Shown: positions 15,030-32,000 of the stretch, piece by piece
How the letters are laid out: every line of letters starts with the position of its first letter
Position numbering within the stretch: position 1 is the first letter of the stretch
NCBI RefSeq assembly: GCF_044582135.1
Contig: NZ_JBDODP010000002.1
Coordinates: 62,396 to 94,395, forward strand
Reading direction: 5' to 3'
DNA length: 32,000 bases
DNA from: Guyparkeria halopsychrophila
GTDB taxonomy: Bacteria; Pseudomonadota; Gammaproteobacteria; Halothiobacillales; Halothiobacillaceae
Position numbers and translations under genes: made by a program
Notes under the pieces: generated by a model
What the model saw: only the letters and a program-made list of their open reading frames with translations
What the model was told of the DNA's origin: nothing
The model's database searches: none

Positions 15030-15106
15030 GCCCATGTAGCTCAGCTGGATAGAGCAACCGCCTCCTAAGCGGTAGGTCGCAGGTTCAAATCCTGCCTTGG
15101 GCGCCA
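15030..15106 (+). tRNA. tRNA-Arg (anticodon CCU)
   Basis: Hand-folded cloverleaf of 77 nt. Acceptor gcccatg/cttgggc (one U-U), D arm gctc-agctggata-gagc, anticodon arm accgc-ctCCTaa-gcggt, T arm gcagg-ttcaaat-cctgc, encoded CCA. Confidence 0.9.
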
Positions 15107-15195: not shown

Positions 15196-15284
15196 GGTCC
15201 CCACTGATGTAGCATGAAGGGTGGGGACCAAGGTGGGGACCATCCGATGGGGTGGGGACTAACCAAGCCGACACCGGTCCCCAC
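15196..15284. repeat. five copies of a 9-bp motif GTGGGGACC / GGTCCCCAC between tRNA and int (candidate arm-type recombinase/RDF sites)
   Basis: ggtccccac at 15196-15204 and 15276-15284. gtggggacc at 15221-15229 and 15233-15241. gtggggact at 15252-15260. Confidence 0.55.
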
Positions 15285-15308: not shown

Positions 15309-16526
15309 ATGCGCATCAACCAACTATCCGCACTCGACGTGCGACGAGCGAAGTTCGAAGGCCGCGCCTTCAAGCTATTCGACGGCGGTGGGCTGTATCT
15401 GCGAGTCAGGGCGAACGGTCGGGCATGGGTGTTCCGCTACAAGTTCCAAGGCAGGAGCAGAGACACCACGCTAGGCAAGCTGCCGGGAATGACCTTGGCG
15501 GAAGCACGTCGACGCCGTGACGCGTTCCGCGCCATGCTGGCGGATGGAGTCGACCCGATCGAGCATCGCCGCCAGCAAGTCGAGGCGGCCAAGGCAGAGA
15601 AGGAAGGCAGCTCCCGGACGCTCGAGCGCGTGTTCGAGGAATGGGCGGCCGGCCGGCAGTGGACAGACGGTTACCGGGAGAAGCTGACCGGCCGATGGCG
15701 ACGCTACCTGTTGCCCAAGCTAGGCAAGCGCCCAGTCGACGAGATCACCTCGCCCGAGGTCCTGGAGGTGCTGCGCAAGGCAGAGCAGGCGGGCACAACC
15801 GAGGTCGCCCCGCGCTGCCGGCAGGACTTATCCCGGCTGTTCGCCTTCTGCATCGCTAACGGCTGGGCAAAGCATGATCCGGCCGCCAGCCTCGCCCACG
15901 CACTGAAAGAGCGGGCACCCGTCCATCACCGCGCCGCCGTGCTCGACCTCGACCGACTCGGGGAAGTGCTACGGGCAATTGACGCCCACGCCGGGCAGCC
16001 GTCGACAAAGGCCGCGCTTCAATTGTTGCCGATGCTGATGGTCCGCCCTGGAGAGTTGCGGAACATGGAGTGGGCAGAAGTCGACCTCGACGCCGGTCTG
16101 TGGAGCATTCCCGCCGCGAAGATGAAGATGCGGGCCGATCACCTAGTGCCCTTGCCACGGCAGGCCCTCGCCATCCTCAAGGACCTGCATCACTGGACAG
16201 GGCATCGCGCCCTGGCATTCCCCGGCCTGCGCAGTGCGGCCAAGCCGATCAGTGAAAACACGCTGAACGCGGCCTTCCGCCGCATGGGTTTCTCGAAAGA
16301 CGAGATCAGTGCCCACGGCTGTCGGGCGACCGCCCGCACCATGCTTGCCGAGCGCCTGCGTTGGCCCGCCCACATCATCGAGCTGCAATTGGCACACGCG
16401 CCCCGTGATCCGCTCGGGAGAGCCTATAACCGCGCTGACTTCATTGAAGATCGGCGGCAGATGTTGCAGGAGTGGGCGGACTATCTTGGAAAGCTGCGGC
16501 AGTCCGTCACTGTGGCAAGGCGATGA
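15309..16526 (+). CDS. int: P4-type tyrosine integrase (DUF4102 N-terminal domain)
   Basis: N-terminus LSALDVRRAKFEGRAFKLFDGGGLYLRVRANG..WVFRY. Catalytic-domain residues R (MLMVRPGELR), HGCRATART, and LAH..RD..AY. Start chosen at ATG 15309; the track ORF start at 15252 lies inside the repeat cluster. Confidence 0.9.
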   Translation: MRINQLSALDVRRAKFEGRAFKLFDGGGLYLRVRANGRAWVFRYKFQGRSRDTTLGKLPGMTLAEARRRRDAFRAMLADGVDPIEHRRQQVEAAKAEKEGSSRTLERVFEEWAAGRQWTDGYREKLTGRWRRYLLPKLGKRPVDEITSPEVLEVLRKAEQAGTTEVAPRCRQDLSRLFAFCIANGWAKHDPAASLAHALKERAPVHHRAAVLDLDRLGEVLRAIDAHAGQPSTKAALQLLPMLMVRPGELRNMEWAEVDLDAGLWSIPAAKMKMRADHLVPLPRQALAILKDLHHWTGHRALAFPGLRSAAKPISENTLNAAFRRMGFSKDEISAHGCRATARTMLAERLRWPAHIIELQLAHAPRDPLGRAYNRADFIEDRRQMLQEWADYLGKLRQSVTVARR

Positions 16527-16832: not shown

Positions 16833-17247
16833 GTAAATCCATCGCTGATGGGATGGCATGTATACCTAGTTTGTTTCAAACCACCCGATTGGTAAACGGG
16901 CTAGCCCGGTTAGCGCCGGGCAGTTAAGGACGATACAACCCCTATTGCATCCAATGCAACCCGCTTAGATTGTCCCTTAAACCGCCGTACTGCCAACGAT
17001 GCCAAACCGTCAGTGATCCGTCGTTACAACACGAGGATGACTGAAAATGATCACTTGTTCGTGCCCCGCCATCGACTTGTCGCGCCTGCGGCGACGGTCA
17101 GAAGTTGAATGCCATGCCGTGCGTTCGACCCTTCGCCCCATTCCCCTCGGACCCCTTGCCGTGCCTTGGTCAGTTACTGCCGTGGCTGACAGGTTCGACA
17201 TCTTGAGTGTGGGCAGCCAATGGACCGGCAGACGGGAGGCACGAGTC

Positions 17248-17460
17248 ATGCGAGTGAACAGTCAGACCCTCACAATTGGCGACCCGATCGTCCGGCCACG
17301 TGATGCAGCCGAATACCTCGGGATCGGCCGTTCGAGTCTGTATCGGCTGATCGACTCCGGCGATCTGCCGAAGCCCCTACGTTTGACGCCGCAAGCGTCC
17401 GGCTGGCGGCTGTCCACCCTCGAGGAATTTCTGCAGGAACGTGAGGAGGTGTCGAAATGA
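17248..17460 (+). CDS. alpA: AlpA-family (HTH_17) transcriptional regulator / excisionase
   Basis: 70 aa, RPRDAAEYLGIGRSSLYRLIDSGDLPKPLRL...GWRLSTLEEFL. GGGAGG lies 8 nt upstream of ATG 17248. Confidence 0.8.
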   Translation: MRVNSQTLTIGDPIVRPRDAAEYLGIGRSSLYRLIDSGDLPKPLRLTPQASGWRLSTLEEFLQEREEVSK

Positions 17461-17738
17461 AAAATGCCTCCGTACGTGAGAATAGGGCTGGGCCGGCAAC
17501 CGATACTTTCGGCCATAGCAACAACGCCGTCCTAAGCCGTAAGGCGCAGCTGGCCCGCGTTCTTTACTATCTGCACCAGCACCATTTGCTGCGCTCGGCC
17601 GACCGGGTGCTTGAACTGCAGGAGCGACTCCACCGGGTCGAGAGATCGTGGAGAGAGGAACACGACGCCGCTGCGAATCCTCATCGCGTCGTAGAGTACA
17701 CCTTGGCGCCGACTGTGGCGGGGGAGGTGGCTACATGA
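17457..17738 (+). CDS. hypothetical protein (orf93)
   Basis: Its ATG overlaps the alpA stop (ATGA) and its stop overlaps the next start (ATGA). No family recognised. Confidence 0.45.
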   Translation: MKNASVRENRAGPATDTFGHSNNAVLSRKAQLARVLYYLHQHHLLRSADRVLELQERLHRVERSWREEHDAAANPHRVVEYTLAPTVAGEVAT

Positions 17739-18214
17739 CACCATTTCAGCATCACCTCGCTCCCTTCGATAAAGTTCTGGCCCACGTCGCCGTGGCTAAG
17801 GAGGCGAAACCTGCACCCGGTCTCGTCCGCGCCATGACTTGCGCTTGTCCTGCGCACAAAGACAAGCGTCCGAGCCTTCTGGTCTCCGAGACCGACGATG
17901 GCCGCGTGCTGATGCACTGCCGGGCCGGCTGTTCTTTCGATGAGATCCGGCGGGGCCTTGGGCTCGAACTGATCGACCTGATCCCCGAGCACCTGCGACA
18001 CGCCCGCAACGATGCCAACCGGTCGCCGCACAAAGGCCCAAGGTTCAGCCCTTGGGCTGCGCTCCAGGCCTTGGCCGTGGACGTGATCACCGTCGCACTC
18101 GCCGCCGCTCAGATCCGGCGCGAGGGATGGATTGACGACGCCGACTTCGAGGCACTGATGCAAGCCGAGGCGCGAATCCAGAACACGGTTCAGGCGGGAG
18201 GCTTTCAGAGATGA
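17735..18214 (+). CDS. CHC2-type zinc-ribbon protein (primase-like Zn finger only)
   Basis: 159 aa, CACPAHKDKRPSLLVSETDDGRVLMHCRAGC. This matches the DnaG/CHC2 pattern CP.H.(D/E)K.PS..V....C..GC. No TOPRIM-like region is visible. GGGGGAGG precedes ATG 17735. Confidence 0.6.
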   Translation: MTPFQHHLAPFDKVLAHVAVAKEAKPAPGLVRAMTCACPAHKDKRPSLLVSETDDGRVLMHCRAGCSFDEIRRGLGLELIDLIPEHLRHARNDANRSPHKGPRFSPWAALQALAVDVITVALAAAQIRREGWIDDADFEALMQAEARIQNTVQAGGFQR

Positions 18215-19824
18215 GCATCGCAGATCAAGCCGAAGCCTTAACGGTAAATCCTCTCGAGGCAGAGGTCGACGACCGGGACTACACCATCGCACCGCCGAAG
18301 GCTGACCCGGCGATGTTCCACGGTCTCGTCGGCGAGGTGGCAGAGGCGGCCACTACCGGACGGGAACCGAACCGGGTGAGCGTAGCCCTGACCTTCCTGA
18401 CCTGGCTGTCCGCTGCGGCCGGTCGGCATCACTTCATCAGCGTGGGCGACCAGACCCACCCGCTACTGATCAACGGCTTGCACGTCGGTCGATCCATGGT
18501 CGCAGCCAAGGGCGAGAGCTGGGCACTGGTGAAGCGCATCCGCCGCGCCGTCGGCGAGATGATGGACAGCGATCACGTGCCTAGTGCCGATGACGAGGGC
18601 GCCGTGGTCACGCCGGAACTTTTCGCCGGCCGGGTTCACTCCGGTGGTCTGTCGACGGGCGAGGGGCTGGCGGCACAGGTTCATGACGGTTTCACGACCG
18701 GCAAGACCGAGCACGCCCCCATCGACGACAAGCGCCTGCTGATCATCGAGGCGGAGTTTGCCAAGCTGCTCGCGCAAGGCAAGCGGGAGGGCAACACCCT
18801 GAGCCCGATCATCCGCGACCTGTTCGATGGCGGATCAATCCAGCCGGCCACCAAGTCCGCTAGCATCTGGGCAACCGAGCCACACGTCTGCGTTCACGGA
18901 GCGATCACGCCGTTCGAGCTGAGGGCACGCATGGACGCTACGGCGGCACACAACGGCCTGATGAATCGGTTCCTGATCATCTTCGCCGAGCGCACCCGGC
19001 TGGTGGCTTTCCCCGAGCCCACGCCCGACGAGGTGGTTCAACGCCTCGCGGTTCGCACCAGGGACGTGATCAAGTTCGCCCGAGGGGACTACCCGCGTAC
19101 CAAGTACGCCGCGCCGATCACGCTCTCCGACGAGGCCCGGGAAATGTACCGGGAGGCCTATCCGGACCTGCGGCGGCGCGACGGCTCCACGCCGATCATT
19201 ACCTCGGTTCTCGAGCGCCGGGCGCCGATCACCATGCGGCTGGCGGGACTGTTCGCCATGACCGACCAGACCGCCGTGATCGGTGTCGACCACATGCGAG
19301 CAGCGCTCGCCTGGTCACGGTTCCACCGGGAATCGGTCGGGTTCATCTTCGGGTCGGACATGACCCAGCGTATCCAGTCGGAGAAGCGCCGCGAACACAA
19401 GCAGAAGATCCTTGACGGCATCGCGGTCGAGCGATGGATCACCAGGACGGAGATTCAGCGCCGACTGTTCGCCAACCGGATCAAGGCATCAGACCTGACC
19501 GCCGCCCTCGAGGACCTACTCGCCGACGGGCAGATCGAGCAACGGGAACGACCGAAGGACAACGGCATCAGCACCGTGAAAGAGTATTCCCGGCCTGCGA
19601 AAGATGCGAACCATGCGATACATGGCACCAGCACCGCATCCGCGCCGATGCGAATGTCCGCGAACCATGCGACACAAGGGCAGGCGGACACCGATCAAGC
19701 TCCCCATGGTTCGCATGATTCGCAAAGGTTTGCGACCCCCGAAACCCGCACCAGCGCCCATGTTTCGCATCATTCGCATGGTTCGCAGACCACACAGGGA
19801 AATGATGACGAGGCGGTGGTATGA
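18211..19824 (+). CDS. DUF3987/YfjI-like replication-associated protein with C-terminal winged-helix-like region and His/Ser-rich tail
   Basis: 537 aa. N-terminal FHGLVGEVAEA..., LSTGEGL, LLIIEAEF and NRFLIIFAE resemble island/satellite DUF3987 proteins as I recall them. I could not find a canonical GxxxxGK[ST]. Confidence 0.5.
   Translation: MSIADQAEALTVNPLEAEVDDRDYTIAPPKADPAMFHGLVGEVAEAATTGREPNRVSVALTFLTWLSAAAGRHHFISVGDQTHPLLINGLHVGRSMVAAKGESWALVKRIRRAVGEMMDSDHVPSADDEGAVVTPELFAGRVHSGGLSTGEGLAAQVHDGFTTGKTEHAPIDDKRLLIIEAEFAKLLAQGKREGNTLSPIIRDLFDGGSIQPATKSASIWATEPHVCVHGAITPFELRARMDATAAHNGLMNRFLIIFAERTRLVAFPEPTPDEVVQRLAVRTRDVIKFARGDYPRTKYAAPITLSDEAREMYREAYPDLRRRDGSTPIITSVLERRAPITMRLAGLFAMTDQTAVIGVDHMRAALAWSRFHRESVGFIFGSDMTQRIQSEKRREHKQKILDGIAVERWITRTEIQRRLFANRIKASDLTAALEDLLADGQIEQRERPKDNGISTVKEYSRPAKDANHAIHGTSTASAPMRMSANHATQGQADTDQAPHGSHDSQRFATPETRTSAHVSHHSHGSQTTQGNDDEAVV
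19603..19787. repeat. iteron-like cluster of ATGCGAA / TTCGCAT repeats (candidate origin of replication)
   Basis: Forward copies: gATGCGAAccATGCGA (19603-19618) and gATGCGAAtgtccGCGAAccATGCGA (19647-19672). Inverted copies: catggTTCGCATgaTTCGCA (19705-19724) and catgtTTCGCATcaTTCGCATggTTCGCA (19759-19787). The overall dyad is centred near 19690. Confidence 0.6.
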
Positions 19825-20257: not shown

Positions 20258-21862
20258 TTACATATTGAGGCCTCGGTCTTTGTGCGGGTAAATTGGGGCG
20301 TGATCCTCCGGGGTCATGTCGCTCACCTCGTCTTCCGGGCGCTTCATAGTTCTCGCTCCGCCGTGTTGCTCCATCTTGTGACTGACCATGCGCATTTGGC
20401 GGTGGCGGCGGCCAGGAGTGTGGAATTCGATGTGATCGAGTCGCCCGTCCTCGGTAGCCTTCCGGATGATTTCTGCAGCAACGTCGTCTGAGACGTTGAA
20501 GGCCAATCGCTCCCAATCAGCGTCACACCCCGCAAGGTACAGCGCAGTCGCGATTTGATGTGGTGTTGCCTCTTGAGGGGGCGCGCCAATAGTTTGTTCC
20601 CCCTCAACGGATATCAGGCCGTGCAATTGTCGGAAAGATCCGCTTGCAAGGTCGGCATGTGATGGCTCTTGGCTGGTGGGCATGACCGTGGACCATCCGG
20701 CAAGCAATTTGCTTCTCGTCCGTTTCTCTTCTCGGACTTTCTCCTCAGCCGCTAGCGCGCGTGCTTCCGCTGCTTGACGCAACTTCTCGGCTTCTTTGAA
20801 CGCTGCCTGCACTTTGCGGGCGGGGTAGACGAGTGCTTGTTTGGTTTCGATGCATTCGCCGAGCAGATGTCGTTTTTCGCGCCCGGTTACACGCTCGATC
20901 CGTCTCGGTGGTTCAAGCTCGATGTGCTCTGACTGCAATTTGGCCAATCGCTGCTCGGCCTCTTTGGCGCGGGACTCGTACTCCCTTAAGCGTTGGCGTA
21001 GCTCGTTGACTTGCTGCTCGGCCTCGTCGGCGGTGGCAAGAGCTTGGTCGAGCCGACGTCGGGCCATAGTGGTTTGCTGCCGATGATGCTCTATTTCAGT
21101 TTCGGCTTGCGCTTCAGCTTGTTCGACTCGCTGCAGAGCTTGCGCGACCTCAGCATCGGCCATGGCCTCTGCTTCCTCTGCGCGAGCAATGGCTCTGTCC
21201 CGCTCATTGCGCGCAGACTCGAGTTCGGCGGGCAGATCCCGGTGCAGCTCGCTTACCGAGCGGTGCACCCACGCCGAAGGACTTTCTCCGTCCGCGATGC
21301 GTGCCCGCTTGGAACGGCCACGCTCAAAACCCAGATCGGCATAAGGCTCGATTGCGATGTCTTGTATTTCCCGCAGGGCTTGCCGATTCATGCGTCGGCT
21401 CACAGGTTGGCCATCCAGACCGACACCGTGCAAAGTGAAGTGAGCGTGGGGTGCAGACTCGTCTCGATGCACTACCAGGCCGGCGACGGTTGTCGTCAAG
21501 CGCTCAGCAATCGCCTCGGCGGTCTGAACGTAGCGCCGATCCTGTTCGGTGACCGGTAATGATTGGATTTCGGATTGGGCATCACTCGAGAACGCAACAA
21601 TGCCGCGAACAGCCACGATACCGTCTGACCGAATCGGTCCAGGTCGTCGTCTCAGCTCTCCGCGTTTATATCGAACGAGTCGTCGGTGTTCGCATTTTTT
21701 GGCGAGGTCGGGTGATCTTGGAACGGGAATCGGAGTGGTGTTGAGGTGGCAGAGCTTCGGGTCAACATAGTCGGGGATCTGTCCGCGGGTATCGTGCAGA
21801 CGTTGTCCCGCGTGGCCGCTACGAGTGGTTGTGCCGATGCGGACAATCGCAGTTTTAGGCAT
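20258..21862 (-). CDS. MobV-family (Mob_Pre) relaxase with long coiled-coil C-terminal half
   Basis: Motif I HDTR (HxxR) near the N-terminus. Motif III HRDESAPHAH (HxDExxPHxH) is encoded at 21440-21469. AGGAGG lies 5 nt upstream of ATG 21862. Confidence 0.8.
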   Translation of the reverse strand: MPKTAIVRIGTTTRSGHAGQRLHDTRGQIPDYVDPKLCHLNTTPIPVPRSPDLAKKCEHRRLVRYKRGELRRRPGPIRSDGIVAVRGIVAFSSDAQSEIQSLPVTEQDRRYVQTAEAIAERLTTTVAGLVVHRDESAPHAHFTLHGVGLDGQPVSRRMNRQALREIQDIAIEPYADLGFERGRSKRARIADGESPSAWVHRSVSELHRDLPAELESARNERDRAIARAEEAEAMADAEVAQALQRVEQAEAQAETEIEHHRQQTTMARRRLDQALATADEAEQQVNELRQRLREYESRAKEAEQRLAKLQSEHIELEPPRRIERVTGREKRHLLGECIETKQALVYPARKVQAAFKEAEKLRQAAEARALAAEEKVREEKRTRSKLLAGWSTVMPTSQEPSHADLASGSFRQLHGLISVEGEQTIGAPPQEATPHQIATALYLAGCDADWERLAFNVSDDVAAEIIRKATEDGRLDHIEFHTPGRRHRQMRMVSHKMEQHGGARTMKRPEDEVSDMTPEDHAPIYPHKDRGLNM

Positions 21863-22285: not shown

Positions 22286-22333
22286 ACAAGGCCCCTGAGT
22301 CATCATCAGCAAGTGCAAAAAAGGAGACACCTC

Positions 22334-23008
22334 ATGTTGAAGCGCACCCACGTTTTCGCCCTGGCCGCCATCATTGCCCTGACTGGGGGGCTGACCGCCT
22401 GTGGCGGCCCGGATGCACCGGAAAGCCCGACCAACCCGTTTAACGGCACCTATAAGGGCAACGTCTTCCTGGATGGCTATCCGCTTCCGGCCGACCAACC
22501 GACCCCGTACATGACGATTGACGGCAAGACGCTGCGGACGTGGGTTGGCCCCGATCGCGAACACGATCGGACTGATGAGTTCAGCTACATCAAGGTCGAG
22601 ACCTTCAAGAGCGGCAAACCCAAGAAAGTCGCGTTCTACAACGAGTACGACGAGGCCGAGTGGACCTTCGTATCAACCCGTAATGGTACCGGCGGGATCA
22701 TGGGGCCAGACTGGTCATTCGGGCATTACGTCCCGGTCGACTTCGACCCGGATGCCATTCGGGCAAGGCAAGAGAAGGAGGCGACGCTCGCGACGGAGCG
22801 GCAAAAGACCGTGAACAAGGTGGTGGCGTTCGGTAACGCTTGGATGGAGGCGTCAGACACATGCAAAGCCAGGGGCCTCGAAGCCACCGAGGATCAAAGC
22901 GTGGACATGGAGATCCTTCGGGCCTGCCTTCAGAAGGTCGATGAATGCGAGAAAGCGCACAAGGCCGAGCACGACATCGAGGGATTCAAGTCCTGCTTTG
23001 ACGACTGA
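22334..23008 (+). CDS. lipoprotein of unknown function with C-terminal four-Cys module
   Basis: MLKRTHVFALAAIIALTGGLTA|CGG lipobox. AAGGAG lies 7 nt upstream of ATG 22334. C-terminus AFGNAWMEASDTC...ACLQKVDECEKA..DIEGFKSCFDD. Confidence 0.7.
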   Translation: MLKRTHVFALAAIIALTGGLTACGGPDAPESPTNPFNGTYKGNVFLDGYPLPADQPTPYMTIDGKTLRTWVGPDREHDRTDEFSYIKVETFKSGKPKKVAFYNEYDEAEWTFVSTRNGTGGIMGPDWSFGHYVPVDFDPDAIRARQEKEATLATERQKTVNKVVAFGNAWMEASDTCKARGLEATEDQSVDMEILRACLQKVDECEKAHKAEHDIEGFKSCFDD

Positions 23009-23045
23009 ACCGGCGCGATTCCGCGCCACGCCATGAGGTGACACC

Positions 23046-23759
23046 ATGCGATTTCTGATTCTGTTTCTCGGCCTGGCCGTCCAATCGGCCGCACTGGCCG
23101 GCTGGACTGTGGAGTCCCACACGGACGCCATGACCGACGAAGTGAAGAAGAAGGCCACGGTCACGAACGACCTTGGCAACTCCTTTACCATCTACCGGAT
23201 CGCCCCTGGCGGGGAGGTCTGGGGCAACTTCGCACTCTCCGAGCGGATGGTCGATCAGGTTGATTGGCGCGATCCGCCTATCTTCCGGGTCGACAAGCAC
23301 GAGCCGCACGATCTGGAGGATGAAAAGAAACTGGATGCCTTGCTGAAAAAGCTCGGGGACTCCGGTGATGTCTACAAGTGGGAGCCCAAGTGGGTCAACT
23401 TCTCGATGTGGCACGGCGACCCCGACGAGGGCATTGCGCCGGTGCTGGTCGAGATCATGGAAGGCTCCAAGCTGATCGTCCGCTACCACCTGGGCACGGG
23501 TGGCTACAAGGACACCACGTTCACGCTCAAGGGCTCGGCCGATGCGATAGCCGAAGCGGTCGGCATCAGTCCGACCGTCGACCATGCCGAGCAGCAGCGC
23601 GTCCAGGCTTTCAAGAACGCCGTCTTGGAGGCGTCCGATCAGTGCAAGCAAGACATGACCTCCATGTCCGATTTCAAGGCGTGCATGATGAAACGGATCA
23701 AATGCGTGAAGCAGGCAGACCAAGACATCCAAGTGTTCAAGTCCTGCTTTTACGACTGA
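23046..23759 (+). CDS. secreted (Sec signal) protein of unknown function, paralogous C-terminal four-Cys module
   Basis: MRFLILFLGLAVQSAALA|GW signal peptide. C-terminus AFKNAVLEASDQC...ACMMKRIKCVKQ..DIQVFKSCFYD. Confidence 0.7.
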   Translation: MRFLILFLGLAVQSAALAGWTVESHTDAMTDEVKKKATVTNDLGNSFTIYRIAPGGEVWGNFALSERMVDQVDWRDPPIFRVDKHEPHDLEDEKKLDALLKKLGDSGDVYKWEPKWVNFSMWHGDPDEGIAPVLVEIMEGSKLIVRYHLGTGGYKDTTFTLKGSADAIAEAVGISPTVDHAEQQRVQAFKNAVLEASDQCKQDMTSMSDFKACMMKRIKCVKQADQDIQVFKSCFYD

Positions 23760-23776
23760 TAGGAAGGGAGATCGCC

Positions 23777-24181
23777 ATGCGAGAAGCGAACTACCAACGC
23801 AAGCCGATCACGGCATTTGAGCCGGGGGACACGCTTTACATCTAGAAGATGGAAGGCGACTTTGCCCTGGCCTACCTGTGCCGCTTCAAGGCATACCGGC
23901 GCGGCGTGGTCTCGGCCGAAGTGATCGCCCCGGCCAACACGGCGCGGGTGGGTCGAGCCTACAAGCTCAGATCCGGATCGCCCATCACGGCGCGGCTGAA
24001 AGAACTGCAACCTGTGGAGATTCGATCGCCACCACGTCGGTGGCAATCACCGGGTGATCTGGTTTCGCCACAAGGACTGCCCGGCCAACTCTCGATGGGA
24101 TCGGCTCGGTTTTTCTGCTCGTTGGCGTATTACATCCATTCGCTGAGAGCGTCTGCCTTGGCTTCGGCCAGCCTGGCGTAG
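23777..24181 (+). pseudogene. small ORF interrupted by an in-frame TAG (23843-23845), probably also frameshifted near 24000
   Basis: AGGAAGGGAG RBS, then ATG 23777: MREANYQRKPITAFEPGDTLYI * K MEGDFALAYLCRFKAYRRGVVSAEV... in one frame. Third-position G+C stays high across the stop, then moves to another frame after about 23995. Confidence 0.3.
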
Positions 24182-24245
24182 AGTGTGCTGCTTCCACATA
24201 CATAACGCGCCCTCCCGTGTGTTCTTTCCGATTCGTCTTTGGTTG

Positions 24246-25034
24246 CTAACCAACGATCGACATCAGGTTGTTCCATTGACCAGTAAGAAATCCAAGGACA
24301 TCAACGTTACTTGCGTAAAGGAACTGCACTGCCGTCAGGCCCAGGAAGAAAACGATAAAAAGAACTGTCCATCGCTTGGTCTTTTTCCGGACTTGCTGCT
24401 CCTCCTCTTTCCTTTTTGCAATGCGTTCCTGCTCCAGTCTTTCCTGAAACTCCTGCAGGGATCGTGCGTGTTCTTCGGCACGCCGGATTCGTTCTTCTTC
24501 CTGGCGGCGAAGATGCTTTCGGTGCTGGAGGAAAGCCTTTTCCTCTCCGGTTTGATCGTCTGGAGCCTTTTCTTTTAGCTGTTGTTCCCGGTGCGCGTCG
24601 TGCCTTTCTTGCGCTTGTCTCTGTCTTTCCTGCTCGGCATTGATCTCCTTTCTTGCCTGCTGTTTCACGCGCTTTCCAACTTCGGCGGGGGCGTTGATGT
24701 CTGCGGCAGCTTCTTCTGCCACGTCTTCCAGAAAACGAAGGCCTTCCGGGTAAGCGGGAATCTTGATTGCTCCCGAGTCCAGATATGGTTGGAGGTAGAC
24801 CTCCAGCACGCGATGCTTGGCTCTCCACGTGACGGCTTCGTTTTGCCATTCGCCCAGAAGGTGCTGAAAACGACTGACTTGCTGTACAAGTGCCTTAGCG
24901 CGGGCTTCTTCCTCGTCGGCGCGTTGTTCTTGTTCTCTGGCGCGGTTTTCCTGTTCGGTCGCGAAGTTCATCCATTCTTGGAGGCTATCGGCCCTGGCCC
25001 CGGCCAGGGATGCCCAATACATGCTGCCAGCCAT
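24246..25034 (-). CDS. tail-anchored membrane protein with long charged coiled-coil-like cytoplasmic region
   Basis: 262 aa. About 215 aa are rich in E/R/Q/K (EQERQRQAQERH.., RRQEEERIRRAEEHARSLQEFQERLEQERIAKRKEEEQQ). A single TM follows (WTVLFIVFFLGLTAVQFLY) with a short tail. No family recognised. Confidence 0.65.
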   Translation of the reverse strand: MAGSMYWASLAGARADSLQEWMNFATEQENRAREQEQRADEEEARAKALVQQVSRFQHLLGEWQNEAVTWRAKHRVLEVYLQPYLDSGAIKIPAYPEGLRFLEDVAEEAAADINAPAEVGKRVKQQARKEINAEQERQRQAQERHDAHREQQLKEKAPDDQTGEEKAFLQHRKHLRRQEEERIRRAEEHARSLQEFQERLEQERIAKRKEEEQQVRKKTKRWTVLFIVFFLGLTAVQFLYASNVDVLGFLTGQWNNLMSIVG

Positions 25035-25725
25035 AATGTGACCCCCCGTCTGTTTGCGTCGATCCCGTCCGGTTTTGATGTACCACGCTCGGGCGGGTTC
25101 GGCAAGTCCGTGCAGTTATGTCAACCACACGTTTTTGACGAGGATGCAGCCATGACTCGACAAGTCAGCCCCGGTTGGGGGGGCGCTGGTATCAGCGCCC
25201 GGAGGACAATTCCTGGTCCGGAGCGGTTGATACAGTGGTCCGGGGGCATGGGCTCCAGGCGAGTGCTTTGTTGCAAGTTGGCGAGCACGTACACGAGGCG
25301 TTTAGTGTGATCTGAAAGACGTCGCAGCACTCGTTCCGGTCTGCCTTGTCCCGAAGGAGTCGCTTGGCGACGGGAGCCAATGCGGCGACGGGGCTTCCCC
25401 ATATACCGTCTGGACCTTTTGCCTGTCACGGCCGCGATGCTCCCCTAGGAGTGGATCATCATCGCCAGATCCAGCACGTCCCGGCTTAACATCGAGCGAC
25501 CGCCTCATCGGTCGGTTGTGTTTACCCGAACACCTAGGCACGTGAACTGAGGAGGGCATTCGTTTATTAAAGTGCATTGTTGTGAACAACGAGGCGGGGT
25601 CTTGGTGTCCTACATGGCAGGGATCGTCTTTCAACCAGAAGAAAAAATGTAAAGAGTCTCCCGTTTCAGCGGACCGTGAGGTGAAGCCGGAATAGTTTGA
25701 CGGCGAGCGTGAAAGGATTAGGGAT

Positions 25726-28332
25726 ATGCGCCGAAGGGGTAAAAATAGCGTAGCTGTGGAGGTCCCTCATGGGATCTTCTCCCAGTGCCCTGCGAAAACT
25801 TACACAGATCGATTGGGGCGTACGTGTGCCGGGCGCAGTGTTTTGGATCATTGTCTGGCAGTCGGGGCGGTGGCCGCGCGGCTTGAGGAAATGTTTCCGA
25901 GGGAGTTAAGAGAGCTGTTGTTTCCGCCCGGGGCCTGTTTGGTGGCGGGTGCTCATGACATAGGAAAAGTTTCACCAACGTTTGTTGCCAAGATCCTGCG
26001 CGCACTCGATCCCGCTTGCGGGGTGGGTCCTGACTTGGCTGGAGCCGTCGCAGGCGTTTCTCCCGACATCGAGAGAAACTGGGGTGGGCATGCCGGCGTT
26101 AGCCAGTGTGCCGCAGCCAGCATGGGAGCGTCGTCACCTATTCCGGAAATCCTCGGCCAGCATCACGGCTATTCACCCCAGGTCGAGGGCCGGTCTGGAG
26201 ATGAAGAGTCGTTTGGCGGTCAGGCTTGGCAATGTGAGCGCGAAGCGCTGGTCGAGGCGCTCAAGGAGAGGATGGCCTCTGACTGGCCGGAGCACGTCAA
26301 TCCCGTTCAGGCCCGCGTTCTTGCGGGCCTGACCACAGTCGCGGACTGGATTGGCTCCGGTCAACACTTCGATGATCCGTCAGATTCGTGGGAAGGAAGG
26401 GTGGATCAGGCCGTTCATGACTCAGGTTTCATACCGTTCTCCATCAAAAAGGGGCTGGCATTCGAGGACATATTTCCCTTCAGCGCCAATCAGGCACAGG
26501 TCCGGCTTGCAGATGCGGTCGAAGGTCCGGGCGTGTATCTGCTCGAAGCTCCGATGGGAATGGGCAAGACGGAGGCGGCCTTGTATGCAGCCTACCGACA
26601 GCTGGCCGCCGGCAAGGCAACCGGTATCTATTTTGCGCTCCCGACCCAGCTGACCTCCAACCGGATTCATGGCCGACTCCGGCGTTTTCTTGAAAAGGTC
26701 TTGGAGCCGGGTGATCCCATGGCACATGCCATGCTTCTTCACAGCGGGGCCTGGCTGGTGGAGTCGGAAATGGGTGAGGAGGGGCGCCCGGGTGGCTCCT
26801 GGTTCAGCCAAGCGAAGCGCGGACTGTTATTCCCGTTCGCGGTGGGCACCCTCGACCAGGCATTGATGGCCGTGATGAACGTCAAGCATGGTTTCGTTCG
26901 GGCGTTCGGCCTGGCGGGCAAGGTGGTGATTCTCGACGAGGTTCACACCTACGACGCATACACGGGGACATTGCTCGATGAGCTGGTCGCCTTTCTCCGT
27001 GAGGCGGGATGCACGGTCATCATCCTGACAGCAACCTTGTCCCGGTCACGACGCAATCAGTTATTCGGTGAAGAGGCGCTTCGGGACGATTATCCGCTGG
27101 TGACCGGTGCCCCGGGCGCCGGTGACCGTGCGGAGATCCCGCTCGAAAGACCACCGAGCCGACCGGTTGGGCTTGCCTGGCATGGGGAAGAGGCTCCGGT
27201 CATCGAGGACGCACTGCAACGTGCGTCCGACGGGCAGCACATCCTGTGGATCGAGAACACCGTAGCCGAGGCCCAGGAGCGTTTCCGGGTGCTCTCGGCG
27301 CGCGGCCGGGAGGCCTGCATCGAAGTCGGCCTTCTGCACTCTCGCTTCACCGTGGCCGATCGGGAAAGCCTCGAGGATGACTGGGTTGGCCGTTTCGGGC
27401 GGGATGGTCGAGGTGTGTCGCGGCAGTCCGGCTGCATCCTCGTTGGCACACAAGTGCTGGAACAGTCCCTGGATATCGATGCCGATTTTATGGTCACCCG
27501 ATTCTGTCCAACCGATATGCTGTTCCAGCGGCTGGGTCGTCTATGGCGCCACGAAGGGACGCCACGTCCCGTCGGGAGTCGATGCGAGGCGGCAATGCTG
27601 GCCCCCACCCTGACTGATGCGATCCAGAATCCGCCGAAGGCGTTTGATTCCACTGAGTCCGTATACGACGCCTATGTCCTGTGCCGAAGCCTTGGCACCT
27701 GGGAGGGCCTTGAGCAGGTCAGTCTGCCTGACGACATCCGGCCGATGATCGATGCCACCTATCAGCCTCGGGAAGAAACCGGGACGATGGCCCGATTACT
27801 TCATGAGCTGCACGAAGGGAATCGGCGGAAGACGGGCATCTCGACCATGAGACGGCTTGCCCGGGGAGCCCTTTCACTCGGTGGCAAGACGCAATCCGAG
27901 GACAAGGCGGGGACGCGTTATAGCGACATGGAGTCCACCGAGGTGCTCCTGTTGAGCGATATTTTCTCGCATTCCGAGACGCGTGAGACGGTCGTTACCC
28001 TGCTTGACGGCAGCCGCCATCGGATTCCATGGGACCGCCACGTTCTGCAAAGGCGTGACTGGCGGGTTCTGAGCGTGCAAATGGCGCGACAGAAAGTGCG
28101 AGTGGCCGAGCATCAGGCCCCTCGGGCGCTGCCGGTGCGGCTGTTGGAGCGGTACGGACTGGGAAACTGCTTCTATCTCGGCCATCCGGAAGCGGAAACC
28201 TCGTCGTTGCGGATTGGATTGGTGAACGATGCGCGGGAAGTGGTCGGGCTTGACGGTCAAGCGGCCAAAGAGAAGTACCGGACCTTCTATCGCCACGATC
28301 TGGGCTATCAGGCCGAACGGAGAAAGGACTGA
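25726..28332 (+). CDS. cas3: CRISPR-associated nuclease/helicase Cas3 (type I-E style, HD + SF2 helicase)
   Basis: 868 aa. HD-domain residues LDHCLAVG.., AGAHDIGKVSP, QHHGY. Helicase motif I EAPMGMGKTEAAL and motif II VILDEVH. The exact start is uncertain. Confidence 0.9.
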   Translation: MRRRGKNSVAVEVPHGIFSQCPAKTYTDRLGRTCAGRSVLDHCLAVGAVAARLEEMFPRELRELLFPPGACLVAGAHDIGKVSPTFVAKILRALDPACGVGPDLAGAVAGVSPDIERNWGGHAGVSQCAAASMGASSPIPEILGQHHGYSPQVEGRSGDEESFGGQAWQCEREALVEALKERMASDWPEHVNPVQARVLAGLTTVADWIGSGQHFDDPSDSWEGRVDQAVHDSGFIPFSIKKGLAFEDIFPFSANQAQVRLADAVEGPGVYLLEAPMGMGKTEAALYAAYRQLAAGKATGIYFALPTQLTSNRIHGRLRRFLEKVLEPGDPMAHAMLLHSGAWLVESEMGEEGRPGGSWFSQAKRGLLFPFAVGTLDQALMAVMNVKHGFVRAFGLAGKVVILDEVHTYDAYTGTLLDELVAFLREAGCTVIILTATLSRSRRNQLFGEEALRDDYPLVTGAPGAGDRAEIPLERPPSRPVGLAWHGEEAPVIEDALQRASDGQHILWIENTVAEAQERFRVLSARGREACIEVGLLHSRFTVADRESLEDDWVGRFGRDGRGVSRQSGCILVGTQVLEQSLDIDADFMVTRFCPTDMLFQRLGRLWRHEGTPRPVGSRCEAAMLAPTLTDAIQNPPKAFDSTESVYDAYVLCRSLGTWEGLEQVSLPDDIRPMIDATYQPREETGTMARLLHELHEGNRRKTGISTMRRLARGALSLGGKTQSEDKAGTRYSDMESTEVLLLSDIFSHSETRETVVTLLDGSRHRIPWDRHVLQRRDWRVLSVQMARQKVRVAEHQAPRALPVRLLERYGLGNCFYLGHPEAETSSLRIGLVNDAREVVGLDGQAAKEKYRTFYRHDLGYQAERRKD

Positions 28333-28338
28333 ATCAAC

Positions 28339-29940
28339 ATGAGTAATGAATACAACCTGATCGACGAGCCGTGGATCCCGGTCGCGGACCACGGCAGGGT
28401 GGGGCTCGGAGAGGTTTTCTCCCGTACGGACATCCGCGCACTGGGTGGCAATCCGATTCACAAGTTGGCCGTCATGAAGCTGCTCCTTGCCATTGCCCAG
28501 GCCGCCTGCACGCCCGAAGACGAGGACGATTGGCGAAAGATGGGGCCCGAGGGGCTGGCATCGAACTGCCATGCCTACCTGGAAAAATGGCGTGACCGCT
28601 TCTTTTTGTTCGGTGAAGCTCCCTTCCTGCAGATGCCAGCGGTGGAGTCACTGGTCGCCACCCGGACGGAAGCTCGATTGAAGAAGGCCAAGACGCCCGG
28701 GCAGAGGAAGCAAGAAATACAGAAAGGCGCACCGAAGCCCTTCGGTGCCGGCTTCTACCCGGATCTTCCCTCGGACAACAACTCGATGCTCTCCCACACC
28801 ATGCTGGGAAAGGAGCTGGATTCGGGTGAACAGGCCCTCTTCGTCCTGACCCTGATGAACTTCGCCTTTGCCGGGAAGCGGGTCGAGGGAGGAATGACAT
28901 CCCTTGCCGGCACCGTACTCAGTGACAAGCACAGCGCGCCTGCAGGCCCCGGTCTTGGAGGATTCGTGGGTCAGCTGCACGGGCTCGTGGTGACCGGAGA
29001 CCTGCGAAAGGATGTCTGGCTGAATATGCTGACCAAGGCACAGATTGAAAAGGCGAACCGGTGGACAGAAGGAGTGGGGCGTCCTGCCTGGGAAGCCATG
29101 CCCGCTCACGAGCAGGACGCGCGGGCCAAGGCCATCAGGGAAAGTTACCAGGGATGTCTGGTCGGGGTCTCGCGGTTTGTCTACCTCAAGGAAGGCGGTA
29201 TCTATTACCTCGATGGCATTCAGTATCCCAAGGTCAGCGAGGGCTGGTTCGAGCCCACCCTGATGCTCGATCAGAGCGACAAGCTGCCGAAAGCGAAATA
29301 CGTGAACCTGGAAAAACGCCCTTGGAGAGAGCTTCCTGCCTTTCTCTCGTTCCTGGAAAGTGGAAGTACAGCTGGCTTCGAGAACATGGCGCTTCGAGTC
29401 GGCGTTCAACGAATGAGTCAGCGGAAAGAGCGACTGTGCGTCTGGACAGGTGGAATTCGGGTCAGCAGTACATCGGGCGATCAGTCGGCCAAGCAGGACG
29501 ACGACTTTCTCGAATCGACAGTCTGGATTGACGGGGATGACCTCGGCACGGTCTGGCTCGACCACCTCGATCTTGAAATGAAGGGAATGGATAAGCTCGC
29601 AAGCACCGTATACGGCTGTGTGCGCAACTATTTTGCAGACCTTCATGCCACGCCTGAGTATGCCGGTGCGCAAGCGGCGCTAGCCTCAAATCTCTTCTGG
29701 CAGTTCTGTGAGCGGGATTTCCAGACTCTCGTCGATAACTGCGAGCAAGGGGAGCGCGAGTCGCAGGCCCGAGAGGCATTGAGACACCGCTTTGTGCAGC
29801 ACGCTCACAAGGTGTTCGACCTGTACGCACCGAGGGAAACAGCTCGGCAATTGGAGGCCTGGGCAAACCGACGGCCAAATGCGCCCGCTGGTTATCTCGA
29901 GACTACCGAACGACAACAACCCACGATCCAAGGGGCATGA
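28339..29940 (+). CDS. cas8e: Cascade large subunit Cas8e (Cse1/CasA)
   Basis: 533 aa. The N-terminus [11 protein letters not shown]....V.L.EVF is characteristic of Cse1. Lies between cas3 and cse2. Confidence 0.85.
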
Positions 29941-30500
29941 TGATGGAGAATCAAACCACCGAGGAGGCGACCCGGAGCAAGACGAGTGGGCACGAGTCCA
30001 GTCGAGGGCACCGTTTCGTAGCTTACCTGCTCGACAGGGCCCGCAATGACAAGGGTATCGCGGCACGGTTCCGGCGGGCGGACAACCCCGCTACGGAGTA
30101 CCAGGTCTGGGAAGTGCTCGCGGATTTTGGCATCGACCTGGAGTACCGGGATCAGCGACTGCCTTTTGTGACCGTCGGCGCAGCGATGATGCGGGCCCAT
30201 GCCGAACAGAATGGCGTGCTTTCGATTGGAGCCGGCCTTGCCCACAGCTACCCGGATGGCAAGGAGAGTGCGCCAGCTCGCGCCCGGTTGCGTCGTCTGC
30301 TCGCCTGTGACTCCACGGAAGAGGCCTGCGAGGTGCTACGACCGATCCTCACACTGGTGCAGTCCCGTCTGGGCGCGAGGCTCGACTACGGCCGCCTGCT
30401 CAATGAACTGAGCTGGTTTCATCGCCATGGCGAGCGGACCCGGGCCCGGTGGGCGCAAGATTTCTTCCGGGGCCATTTCAAGGAAGAGAGGGGCTCATGA
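29937..30500 (+). CDS. cse2: Cascade small subunit Cse2 (CasB/Cas11)
   Basis: 187 aa, helical. [14 protein letters not shown]...LR....LDYGRLL.EL..W.....RARWAQDFF matches the CasB pattern. Its ATG overlaps the cas8e stop (ATGA). Confidence 0.8.
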
Positions 30501-31153
30501 CAGACGCGCTATACGCCAGTGTTCTTCGACTGGACCGGCGAGCCATCCGGAAACTCGCCATTACCGATCCCTACTCGCTGCACCGAGTCGTGTACAGCCT
30601 GTTCGACGATATAAGAACCGAATCGGAAAAGCGCGGACACGACCCCAGCGGAATCGTGTACGCCGATAAGGGCGGCAACCGCCTGGGAAGAACCATTCTT
30701 ACCCTTTCCGACCGGGCCCCGGCCCAAGGTGTGATTCGGCACGGGGAAGCCTTCGGTGAAGTCGAATCGCGGCCCATTCCCGAGGACTTTCTGCGCCATC
30801 CCCGGTATCGATTCGAAGTGGTCGTCAATCCGACGGTCACGAGCGCCGGCAAGCGCGTACCCATCAAGGGACGGGATGCCATCGAGAAGTGGTTCGTCGA
30901 GCGCAGCGCAGAGAACTGGGGGTTCTCGGCCCCTGCGCAATCACTTCAGGTCGGGCAGGTGAATGTCCAGCAATTCAAAGGAAAACATGGAAACCACATC
31001 ACGCTGTCTCAGGCCCAGCTGACCGGTCTGCTTGAAGTCACGGATGGGGCGCGGTTCCGTGAGAGCTTCGCTCGCGGCATCGGGCGGGGGCGTACCTTCG
31101 GCTGCGGCCTCCTCCAGATCAGACCGGTGATCGACAATCCGTTCGGCTCCTGA
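30497..31153 (+). CDS. cas6e: CRISPR RNA endoribonuclease Cas6e (CasE/Cse3)
   Basis: 218 aa. [18 protein letters not shown], and the C-terminal glycine-rich loop [15 protein letters not shown], as in E. coli CasE (GIGPAKSMGCGLLSL). Its ATG overlaps the cse2 stop (ATGA). Confidence 0.85.
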
Positions 31154-31189
31154 GGGGGCGGGCACCAGCAATCGAGAAAGGAAGAAGTC

Positions 31190-32000
31190 ATGGAAAACAA
31201 CTCCCTCAAGAACACTCGTATCGAGTTTCACATTCTCCAATCGTTTCCGGTGACCTGCCTGAACCGGGATGACGTGGGCGCACCGAAAACCGCCAACATC
31301 GGCGGAGTGACCCGGGCACGGGTTAGTTCTCAGTGTTGGAAACGCCAGGTGAGGCTGGCGCTGCGAGACTTGGGTGCCAAGGCCGGGACACGTACCAAGA
31401 AAGTCAAGGAGCTTCTGGTGCCGGCCTGCAAGGCACACGGTGCGGATGAGCAGGCGGCCGAGGCGTTTTCGGATCGTGTTGCGGAAATCCTTACCAAGGA
31501 CACCTTGTTGTTCATTGGTGACAACGAGGTCGAGGCGTTGGCCCGATACGGCAACTCTATCGACTTCGATACCTCTGGCGTGAAGGAAAAGACACTCTGG
31601 AAAGAGGCGAAGAAGGTTCTTGACCAGGATCGGAGCCTGAAGCACCTCAACGCCCTGGACATCGCACTCTTTGGCCGCATGGTCGCCAAGCTGCCCGACA
31701 TGAACGTCGAAGCAGCGTCCTCTTTTGCCCATGCCATCTCTACCCACAAAGTGGCCAACGAAGTGGAGTTTTTCACCGCTCTCGATGATTACGCCGACCC
31801 CGATGAAGAGGCCGAGCACGAGAGCGGCTCGGCCCACATGGGAAGCCTCGAGTTTAATTCAGCAACGTATTACCGGTACGTGAGCCTCGACCTCGGGCAA
31901 CTGGCAGAGCAGATTCCGGCCGATAACCTTGCCGATGCAGTGGAGTCATTCGTCAAGGCACTGTTCATTGCCGTGCCCGATGCGCGTCAGACGACCATGT
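31190..32000 (+). CDS. cas7: Cascade backbone subunit Cas7e (CasC/Cse4), 3'-truncated by the window end
   Basis: Not in the ORF track because the frame runs off the window. Hand translation: MENNSLKNTRIEFHILQSFPVTCLNRDDVGAPKTANIGGVTRARVSSQCWKRQVR...GSLEFNSATYYRYVSLDL..., with no stop through 31999. GAAAGGAAG RBS upstream. Confidence 0.85.
   Translation, partial: MENNSLKNTRIEFHILQSFPVTCLNRDDVGAPKTANIGGVTRARVSSQCWKRQVRLALRDLGAKAGTRTKKVKELLVPACKAHGADEQAAEAFSDRVAEILTKDTLLFIGDNEVEALARYGNSIDFDTSGVKEKTLWKEAKKVLDQDRSLKHLNALDIALFGRMVAKLPDMNVEAASSFAHAISTHKVANEVEFFTALDDYADPDEEAEHESGSAHMGSLEFNSATYYRYVSLDLGQLAEQIPADNLADAVESFVKALFIAVPDARQTTM

Follow-up and report, generated by a model that had tools for sequence, protein, structure and literature searches.

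In E. coli K-12, the type I-E CRISPR-Cas genes run cas3-casABCDE-cas1-cas2 and are followed by CRISPR-I, an array of 29-nt repeats and 32-nt spacers. A mobile counterpart has been described in V. cholerae: GI-24 is a ~17-kb island with a tyrosine integrase and attL/attR, its excision has been shown experimentally, and its variant gene order, with cas6e before cas7, has already been reported (McDonald et al. 2019, PMC6360697). The GI-24 system was shown to be functional by Box et al., as cited in PMC6360697. According to the available text of a survey of defence-carrying integrative mobilizable elements (Botelho 2023, PMC10201445), the commonest cargo of such elements consists of restriction-modification, CBASS and Thoeris systems.

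Here, we analysed a 32,000-nt stretch of DNA (the window) and found that a complete I-E CRISPR-Cas system very probably forms the right-hand cargo of an integrative mobilizable element of 21.3 kb, which is integrated in the 3' end of a tRNA-Arg(CCT) gene of a Guyparkeria-like gammaproteobacterium. The gene content and boundaries of this element could be read directly, and so could an empty site and the near-identical copies of the element that lie in diverged backbones. The following cas genes lie inside the window:

25726..28332, + strand: cas3, HD nuclease and SF2 helicase, 868 aa (TIGR01587, 194 bits; TIGR01596; Pfam Cas3_HD, DEAD, Cas3-like_C_2)
28339..29940, + strand: cas8e (cse1), 533 aa (TIGR02547, 189 bits, cut-off 70; Pfam CRISPR_Cse1)
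29937..30500, + strand: cse2 (cas11e) (TIGR02548, 58.9 bits, cut-off 28.5; Pfam CRISPR_Cse2)
30497..31153, + strand: cas6e, 218 aa, ahead of cas7 (TIGR01907, 137.6 bits, cut-off 45.2)
31190..32000, + strand: cas7e, codons 1-270 of 363, truncated where the window ends (TIGR01869, 267 bits)

The original prediction had recognised these five genes in the order cas3-cas8e-cse2-cas6e-cas7 and had assigned them to subtype I-E. Both points are borne out: the Cse1/Cas8e, Cse2, Cas6e and Cas7e subtype models score above their curated cut-offs (Cas7e as far as residue 270), and the 4-nt ATGA overlaps predicted at 29937 and 30497 are present. The Cas3 translation shows HD, GKT and DEVH motifs; the core (TIGR01587) and HD (TIGR01596) models pass, and the whole-protein equivalogs NF007248 and TIGR02621 fall below cut-off. 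The exact Cas6e protein occurs on four public contigs. As had been claimed, no CRISPR array exists anywhere in the 32 kb.

Two near-identical contigs continue past position 32000. Contig L001, which is 99.99% identical to the window over a 7.5-kb overlap, supplies the rest of cas7, then cas5e, cas1e, cas2e, a 34-repeat array and attR; contig L002, 100% identical over 6.8 kb, continues cas7-cas5-cas1-cas2. Thus cas5, cas1, cas2 and the array, which had been predicted to be either downstream of 32000 or missing, are downstream (the array in L001), and the idea of an interference-only operon has to be dropped, as adaptation genes and array follow directly in these contigs. In L001, the full-length Cas7e, Cas5e (TIGR01868), Cas1e (TIGR03638, 316.6 bits) and Cas2e (TIGR01873, 100.1 bits) all score above cut-off, and Cas1e and Cas2e were also called in L002. 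The full order is cas3-cas8e-cse2-cas6e-cas7-cas5-cas1-cas2, then leader, then array. The array (L001 9737-11778) consists of 34 repeats of 29 nt, GTCTTCCCCGCGCGAGCGGGGGTGTTTCC, and 33 spacers of 32 nt, with a 61-bp period, and its last repeat is degenerate; the repeat did not reach the threshold of any Rfam CRISPR-DR family. With Cas5e and the full Cas7e taken from L001, the locus has what a I-E system calls for: a Cas3 with HD and SF2 domains, all Cascade subunits, Cas1e and Cas2e, and an adjacent array of palindromic repeats of ~29 nt and spacers of ~32 nt.

The left part of the element, including the integration target, contains the following features:

15030..15106, + strand: tRNA-Arg(CCT), integration target (ARAGORN; Rfam tRNA, 70 bits)
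15091-15106: attL core, the last 16 nt of tRNA-Arg(CCT), CCTGCCTTGGGCGCCA
15197..15284, unstranded: five copies of GTGGGGAC, three in direct and two in inverted orientation, immediately inside attL and ahead of int; putative arm-type sites for integrase binding
15309..16526, + strand: P4-type tyrosine integrase, 405 aa (Pfam Arm-DNA-bind_3, Phage_int_M, Phage_integrase; PHROG 1 integrase, 4e-54)
17047..17460, + strand: AlpA-family excisionase/regulator (Pfam Phage_AlpA, 2e-9; PHROG 'excisionase and transcriptional regulator')
17457..17738, + strand: 93-aa protein, weak winged-HTH match (Pfam HTH_39, E=0.001, below cut-off; gene also called in L085)
17735..18214, + strand: 159-aa protein, like the N-terminal part of DNA primase (PHROG 6088 DNA primase, 5e-12)
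18211..19824, + strand: DUF3987 primase/helicase-type replication protein, 537 aa (Pfam DUF3987, 3e-20; PHROG primase/helicase families)
20258..21862, - strand: MobV-like relaxase, 534 aa, ending in a long coiled-coil region (NCBIfam, Pfam and PDB matches)
22313..23759, + strand: two paralogous genes, 231 and 237 aa (ORFs; 47-nt 3' ends 83% identical)
24246..25034, - strand: 262-aa charged cargo protein (ORF; IS-interrupted in MAG GCA_023659295.1)

The integrase, alpA, replication-like module and MobV relaxase that had been proposed upstream of the cas genes are therefore present after tRNA-Arg(CCT), the relaxase being MobV-like. Against NF007246, the integrase gives 2e-58, under the curated cut-off (198 vs 434 bits). 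The relaxase aligns with positions 3-183 of the 187-position NCBIfam MobV profile (NF041497) at 3e-12, below the curated cut-off, and matches Pfam Mob_Pre at 25.4 vs a cut-off of 25.5 bits; in the PDB it matches only 4LVI, the relaxase domain of MobM, where VHRDESAPHAH aligns with VHLDESTPHMH, the HxDExxPHxH motif. No oriT-marking inverted repeat was found upstream of mob. The 159-aa primase-like gene is kept together with the helicase in L093, an IMG/VR sequence considered below. Neither the 231/237-aa paralogues nor the 262-aa protein has a significant match in Pfam, PHROGs or NCBIfam; the N-termini of the former look like signal/lipoprotein sequences, and the latter probably has a coiled-coil and a C-terminal hydrophobic segment. 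No T4SS or coupling-protein family is matched by any of the nine left-module ORFs scanned (those other than the called genes of 34, 41 and 110 aa); cas genes and array make up the remainder of the element. In all, the 21.3 kb hold a P4-type integrase, AlpA, a primase/helicase, a MobV-like relaxase and CRISPR-Cas, with no recognised conjugation machinery, a gene set that fits an integrative mobilizable element. The G+C content is 0.65 in the backbone, 0.605 in the whole element, 0.604 in the cas operon and 0.596 in the left module; the cas operon, predicted to be intermediate between backbone and cargo, does not differ from the rest of the island and is not clearly intermediate.

The right end of the element was read from L001. 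The 16-mer identical to attL occurs there once, on the same strand, at 11943-11958 (composite 36398-36413; short-word BLAST), ~165 bp beyond the last CRISPR repeat, and shuffles gave 0.04 expected matches even with up to 2 mismatches. The composite to which these positions refer (50.9 kb) draws on L001, and the evidence joins different, near-identical assemblies: attR, cas5/cas1/cas2 and the array come from MAG GCA_023659295.1 and not from the window's own contig, so that attL and attR are seen in different assemblies. With these assemblies combined, the element has a site-specific recombinase and direct-repeat attL and attR. The GTGGGGAC cluster holds the only copies in the window and two more lie 62-96 bp inside attR, so that all 7 copies in the 50.9 kb are within 180 bp inside attL or within 96 bp inside attR. 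The attR-like 16-mer and arm sites beyond the array support the proposal that the cas operon is cargo of a tRNA-anchored element bearing an integrase and a relaxase. A second copy of the tRNA 3' end is absent from the 32-kb window, including 21900-25725, where it would have left the cas operon outside. Nor does the window, L001 or L088 contain a further match to the 24-nt tRNA end when up to 3 mismatches are allowed, only the last 16 nt being repeated. The att core is only 16 nt long. At the far right junction, a degenerate candidate for another att copy matched at 10 of 16 positions by eye and was rejected, as this is about chance level.

We found an empty site in contig L092, whose IDH protein is 100% and left flank 99.89% identical to those of the window. 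Homology ends exactly at the tRNA 3' end (15106) and restarts 26.3 kb on in the composite at a YtoQ-family gene, and L092 has no cas genes altogether. Its tRNA has A at the discriminator position vs G in attL and attR, so this strain is not the exact pre-integration state. The empty site likewise lacks an extra 5 kb, with an MmeI-like enzyme and a zeta toxin, that separates attR from the conserved right flank; the insertion is thus composite, and the 16-mer could mark the junction of two tandem islands. From the same metagenome as L092 comes an occupied site, L085, in which the element is 99.94% identical beside a groES/IDH backbone only 93% identical; with the empty site, this is indirect evidence for recent transfer of the element. 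In the L085 tRNA, a T-loop SNP lies 4 nt before the core. L085 can be joined to L003 (same sample) through an IS3-like insertion whose 3-bp duplications match. The join extends the identical stretch to window position 31754, in cas7, which indicates that the left and cas parts travelled together. Contig breaks near cas3 had been considered as a module junction; we rejected this, because IS insertions cause them. A degenerate attB/attP/attL/attR pattern matched nothing in the metagenome contigs, attP included, a null result that says little because the pattern excluded the T-loop SNP variant of L085. Neither an excised form nor a helper element was found.

The original prediction had also set the gene order against that of E. 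coli K-12. The order is as stated; it is not unusual, since cas6e precedes cas7 in all 59 complete related loci (59/59), V. cholerae included, making it invariant in a large I-E lineage. Guyparkeria hydrothermalis R3 (88-89% nucleotide identity), the one close relative that came to light, has its cas module in entirely different flanks, so that a fixed chromosomal locus with the same flanks was not seen. Homology to R3 begins 33 bp into cas3 and stops at the array, and the cas module may have entered the island by recombination rather than co-evolving with it. The 22 kb covered of the Undibacterium and Halomonas ventosae islands contain no attR. Spacers had no protospacer match in the window or fetched loci; their sole match in phages was 26/28 (E=0.6), matches in plasmids were other I-E arrays hit via their repeats, and a scan of IMG/VR with four of the spacers, leaving every sixth base unspecified, gave no match.

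Protein families suggest how the element might act, travel and choose its targets. The P4-type integrase would recombine the 16-bp core common to element and tRNA, presumably assisted by the AlpA-type excisionase and, near each end, by the GTGGGGAC arm sites. After excision, the circle could replicate via its own primase/DUF3987 helicase and would be nicked by the MobV-like relaxase; a co-resident conjugative element would then carry it across, because no mating-pore genes were recognised in the element itself. Cas6e would cut pre-crRNA as in other I-E systems, Cascade (Cas8e, Cse2, Cas7, Cas5, Cas6e) would find PAM-flanked DNA targets for Cas3 to degrade, and Cas1-Cas2 would insert spacers at the leader end. 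The system would thereby guard host and element against phages or rival mobile DNA.

Other readings account for parts of these data. The element might be, or act as, a PICI- or P4-like phage satellite that is packaged by a helper phage and bears CRISPR-Cas in its accessory-gene region. It shows the int - alpA - primase/helicase arrangement typical of Gram-negative PICIs and P4-like satellites, and its closest primase/DUF3987 relative (81% aa identity) lies in L093 (IMG/VR UViG 3300007635_000249), ahead of an HK97-type major head protein, a protease and a portal. However, L093 has only ~2.3 kb in common with the element, which exceeds typical PICIs at 21.3 kb, encodes no terminase, capsid, redirecting or packaging genes, and does encode a MobV-like relaxase with the HxDExxPHxH motif; we consider packaging by a helper quite unlikely. 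A hybrid, in which a satellite-type int-alpA-primase/helicase chassis, also present in a capsid-encoding phage- or PICI-like relative, joined a MobV module and uses a full adaptive CRISPR-Cas system as a weapon in mobile-element conflicts, strikes us as unlikely. If it is true, possible targets include rival islands competing for tRNA-Arg, helper plasmids and phages. The array lies against attR and points the same way as int, so that excision would set int downstream of cas/CRISPR transcription, which, if true, could couple immunity expression to integration state.

Alternatively, the region could be a tRNA-hotspot defence island, immobile as a whole, in which the cas-CRISPR and int-rep-mob modules arrived separately and the 16-mer is a leftover tandem-island junction. 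The MmeI/zeta segment missing from the empty site, the other flanks of the R3 cas module and the IS insertions piling up in the island would all suit such a history. Yet arm-type sites are paired at both ends of the whole 21.3 kb, the element remains 99.94% identical in a backbone diverged by 7%, and the L085-L003 join carries that identity into cas7, all of which makes this reading very unlikely. That the cas operon is an ordinary chromosomal locus beside the integrated element would agree with the absence of attR from the window and with a cas G+C (0.604) near that of the backbone (0.65), but the empty-site contig without any cas genes, the lack of a tRNA-end repeat between relaxase and cas3, and attR and arm sites beyond the array leave this reading with hardly any credibility. 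We therefore favour an integrative mobilizable element with CRISPR-Cas as its cargo. On that reading, a whole adaptive immune system (interference, adaptation and a 33-spacer memory) would move as a single 21-kb mobilizable unit between strains ~7% apart. One metagenome provides unusually clean natural controls, namely the empty and occupied sites together with the same element next to a backbone that has diverged, and the att sites are sharp enough for attP/attB PCR design.

The locus reveals no new mechanism, and systems of its kind are already known. With E. coli K-12 I-E it shares the protein families, a 29-nt repeat with the same GC-rich stem, 32-nt spacers, a 61-bp period, a leader adjoining cas2 and a variable last repeat base, as expected if that base is PAM-derived. 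In contrast, cas6e lies between cse2 and cas7 rather than after cas5, and the system sits on a mobile island rather than at a fixed chromosomal site. PICIs and P4-like satellites have the same int-alpA-primase/helicase core and tRNA-type integration, found here beside the tRNA/att site, whereas the Guyparkeria element has a MobV-like relaxase and no packaging or capsid-redirecting genes, none of its proteins matching PHROG head, packaging or terminase families. Like the defence-carrying elements in the available text of Botelho 2023 (PMC10201445), it combines an integrase, a putative relaxase and defence cargo, with no type IV secretion system recognised in its scanned ORFs, and its 21 kb compare with a mean of 27 kb; that text does not name, as common cargo, a complete CRISPR-Cas system that includes adaptation genes and takes up half of its element. 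GI-24 has the same order, cas3-cas8e-cse2-cas6-cas7-cas5-cas1-cas2 and then the array (L023; PMC6360697), a Cas3 homologue with 51% identity and an integrase homologue upstream of cas3, and both loci place cas6e before cas7 on an integrase-bearing island, excisable in GI-24 and presumably so here. However, GI-24 is inserted between VC0289 and VC0290 rather than in a tRNA gene (L023 contains no tRNA), and its integrase, ~1.4 kb from cas3 in L023, is only 24% identical to that of the Guyparkeria element, which has its own replication and putative relaxase genes; tblastn in L023 finds no AlpA, primase/helicase or MobV counterpart. Because integrase and insertion site differ, GI-24 is an analogue and not a member of the same island family, and our results carry its paradigm beyond Vibrio, to a halophilic sulfur oxidizer and to a probable integrative mobilizable element that targets a tRNA gene.

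The original prediction described five intact cas genes, two ATGA start/stop overlaps and no CRISPR array in the window. Coordinates and family matches to Cas3, Cse1/Cas8e, Cse2, Cas6e and Cas7e bear out the five genes:

cas3, 25726-28332, matches Cas3 models
cas8e/cse1, 28339-29940, matches the Cse1/Cas8e model
cse2, 29937-30500, matches the Cse2 model
cas6e, 30497-31153, matches the Cas6e model
cas7e, 31190 to the window end, matches the Cas7e model

The four Cascade models score above their curated cut-offs for the window proteins. For Cas3, which is 82% identical to Cas3 of G. hydrothermalis, the core and HD domain models pass and both whole-protein equivalog models fall below cut-off. Both overlaps (29937 and 30497) were confirmed in the sequence, and a search of the entire 32-kb window found no array.

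The array and cas5, cas1 and cas2 had been expected to lie downstream of position 32000 or to be missing; in near-identical contigs, they lie downstream. Four public contigs encode a protein identical to this Cas6e. Contig L001 (JAGXPQ010000005.1 of MAG GCA_023659295.1) is 99.99% identical to window positions 24511-32000, a second contig, L002, matches the window at 100% identity across 6.8 kb, and both go on with full-length cas7 (363 aa), cas5, cas1 and cas2. In L001, the Cas7, Cas5, Cas1 and Cas2 proteins pass the I-E-specific models TIGR01869, TIGR01868, TIGR03638 and TIGR01873, respectively, and an array starts approximately 50 bp past cas2; its 34 repeats of GTCTTCCCCGCGCGAGCGGGGGTGTTTCC, the terminal one degenerate, recur every 61 bp and enclose 33 spacers, each exactly 32 nt long. 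Because these genes and the array are present in near-identical contigs, the system is, as read from those assemblies rather than from the window's own contig, complete and not interference-only. No spacer had a detectable target; thus, CRISPR function is assigned by family membership only.

Within the array (L001 9737-11778), the 29th base of the repeat varies, being C in 21 repeats, T in 10 and G in 1. In the E. coli I-E system, this base derives from the PAM and is added when a spacer is acquired. The variation would be expected if the same were true here, and points tentatively to a PAM whose last base is C or T.

We searched for the boundaries of the element using the tRNA region against a 50.9-kb composite of the window and its continuation in L001 and L088. 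The left anchor is:

tRNA-Arg(CCT), 15030-15106

Within the window, there is no second copy of the 3' end of this tRNA. The composite contains one further exact copy of the last 16 nt of the tRNA (CCTGCCTTGGGCGCCA), a direct repeat at L001 11943-11958; this copy lies approximately 165 bp past the final CRISPR repeat, and the 3' end of an MmeI-like gene follows closely. Shuffles gave 0.04 chance matches to this 16-mer when up to two mismatches were tolerated. Of the seven occurrences of the 8-mer GTGGGGAC in the composite, five are clustered at 15197-15284, close to attL and between it and int, and the other two are found 62-96 bp inward of the candidate attR. This placement is the pattern expected of arm-type sites for an integrase with an Arm-DNA-binding domain. 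With attL taken from the window and attR from the MAG, which are different assemblies, the element runs from 15107 to composite position 36413 (21,307 bp; G+C 0.605, versus 0.65 in the backbone). The predicted attP would read ...TATTTATGTGGGG-CCTGCCTTGGGCGCCA-TCTTCCTTTTTCAGCG..., and in the predicted attB, GTTTCCTGATGCACC would follow the tRNA end.

Metagenome JGI 3300033553 contains an empty site. On its contig L092, groES, IDH (protein 100% identical to that of the window) and tRNA-Arg(CCT) are followed, approximately 20 nt on, by a YtoQ-family gene and ilvD; homology to the window (99.89%) ends exactly at the tRNA 3' end and resumes 26.3 kb later in the composite. The tRNA-Arg end in this empty site (L092 2618-2633) is GGGCACCA, with discriminator A, whereas the occupied attL (window 15091-15106) and the attR copy both end in GGGCGCCA, with discriminator G; integration may therefore change the discriminator base of tRNA-Arg.

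In an occupied site from the same metagenome, on contig L085, the element is 99.94% identical to the window (15002-25659) and lies beside a groES/IDH backbone that is only ~93% identical. A T-loop SNP in the L085 tRNA, 4 nt upstream of the core, indicates that this backbone is physically tied to the element. L085 breaks off, and contig L003 starts, within opposite ends of an IS3-like element inserted at 25659/25660, and the GTC duplications match; a single insertion thus separates these contigs, and the identity extends as far as cas7. Together, the empty site and the L085/L003 pair show, by sequence comparison, that the apparently recently transferred unit includes the cas genes. These data, with the repeat and arm-type sites past the array, uphold the proposal that the cas operon is cargo of a tRNA-anchored element.

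This IS3-like insertion (ends TGAAGTGG...; 3-bp duplication GTC) lies 66 bp upstream of cas3 and could alter cas3 expression. Another, in MAG GCA_023659295.1 (tail of L086, head of L001), lies at ~24510 within a gene for a 262-aa protein, with a GAT duplication. The two insertions are independent, were found in other assemblies of the same element, and account for the contig breaks there.

The empty site also lacks the 5 kb that separate attR from the YtoQ gene, so the insertion at tRNA-Arg is composite, probably two tandem islets. This segment (L001 12079-16629, composite 36534-~41100; G+C 0.617) encodes an MmeI-family restriction-modification enzyme (1156 aa), a zeta-toxin-family kinase 100% identical to one of Guyparkeria sp. 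GHLCS8-2, and a 59-aa ORF. We recognized no att repeat of its own in the segment.

Upstream of cas3, the element encodes, in order, a P4-type integrase, an AlpA-type excisionase, a primase-like 159-aa protein, a DUF3987 helicase and a MobV-like relaxase, followed by two paralogous proteins without assigned function and the 262-aa charged protein. Although the relaxase scores below curated cut-offs, its alignment spans the full length of the MobV profile; in the PDB it matches only the MobM relaxase domain (4LVI), over a stretch that takes in the HxDExxPHxH motif (VHRDESAPHAH). The tandem paralogues (22313-23008, 231 aa; 23046-23759, 237 aa) have hydrophobic N-termini resembling signal or lipoprotein sequences, share 47-nt 3' ends that are 83% identical, and have no family match in Pfam, PHROGs or NCBIfam. 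A probable regulatory region of the element is the 520-bp gap between int and alpA (16527-17046), which has low G+C (~0.53), lacks a long ORF and includes a perfect 12-nt inverted repeat (16802-16832).

Integrase, excisionase, replication genes and relaxase, with no mating-pore genes, would be consistent with an integrative mobilizable element. Phage satellites have a similar int-alpA-primase/helicase core, and on an IMG/VR contig the replication module has its closest relative (81% aa identity) beside genes for an HK97-type head protein, a protease and a portal; because the element itself has no packaging genes, we consider a satellite unlikely. On that contig (Ga0102925_1004885/IMGVR_UViG_3300007635_000249; region 735-6516), the primase/DUF3987 module precedes genes for the major head protein, head protease and portal, in that order. 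The replication module is thus common to the present relaxase-bearing island and a phage- or capsid-forming-satellite-like element.

The cas-CRISPR module can evidently switch chassis, as judged from its different flanks in Guyparkeria hydrothermalis R3 (NZ_JAJSEE010000001.1, 10001-19478). There, the cas3-to-cas5 module is 88-89% identical at the nucleotide level and the array follows directly, without cas1-cas2 (nothing matches L001 8605-9660); mutations affect many of its repeats, and no spacers are shared. The flanks are entirely different: genes for a Rep_3 initiator, a DnaC-like ATPase and an HTH protein precede the module, and the BipA gene follows it. The association of tRNA, P4-like integrase and cas3 recurs in several loci of the same I-E lineage: in Undibacterium jejuense and Undibacterium sp. 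at tRNA-Ser(TGA), and in Halomonas ventosae near a tRNA-Phe/Gln/Thr cluster (L058 6122-12547, L066 1205-12547 and L005 1640-12589). No attR was found within the 22 kb fetched for these islands.

A Cas3 scan of one genome per species yielded 80 related loci, and we scored gene order in those covering the whole operon. The order cas3-cas8e-cse2-cas6e-cas7-cas5-cas1-cas2 was present in all 59 such loci, including V. cholerae ATCC 14035, Nitrosomonas, Methylococcales, Chlorobiaceae and Geobacteraceae, and McDonald et al. 2019 (PMC6360697) reported exactly this order, termed a variant arrangement, in V. cholerae GI-24. The order does differ from that of E. coli, as originally predicted, but is not unusual: the cas6e-before-cas7 order is a lineage trait that is already published.

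The present island is a correct and well-delimited finding, and its closest known case is GI-24, an excisable, integrase-bearing island of ~17 kb whose I-E system, with the same gene order, is described as functional in that report (PMC6360697). An I-E island with this order was therefore already known; in contrast to GI-24, the present element targets a tRNA gene, has an unrelated integrase (24% identity), and carries replication and relaxase modules.
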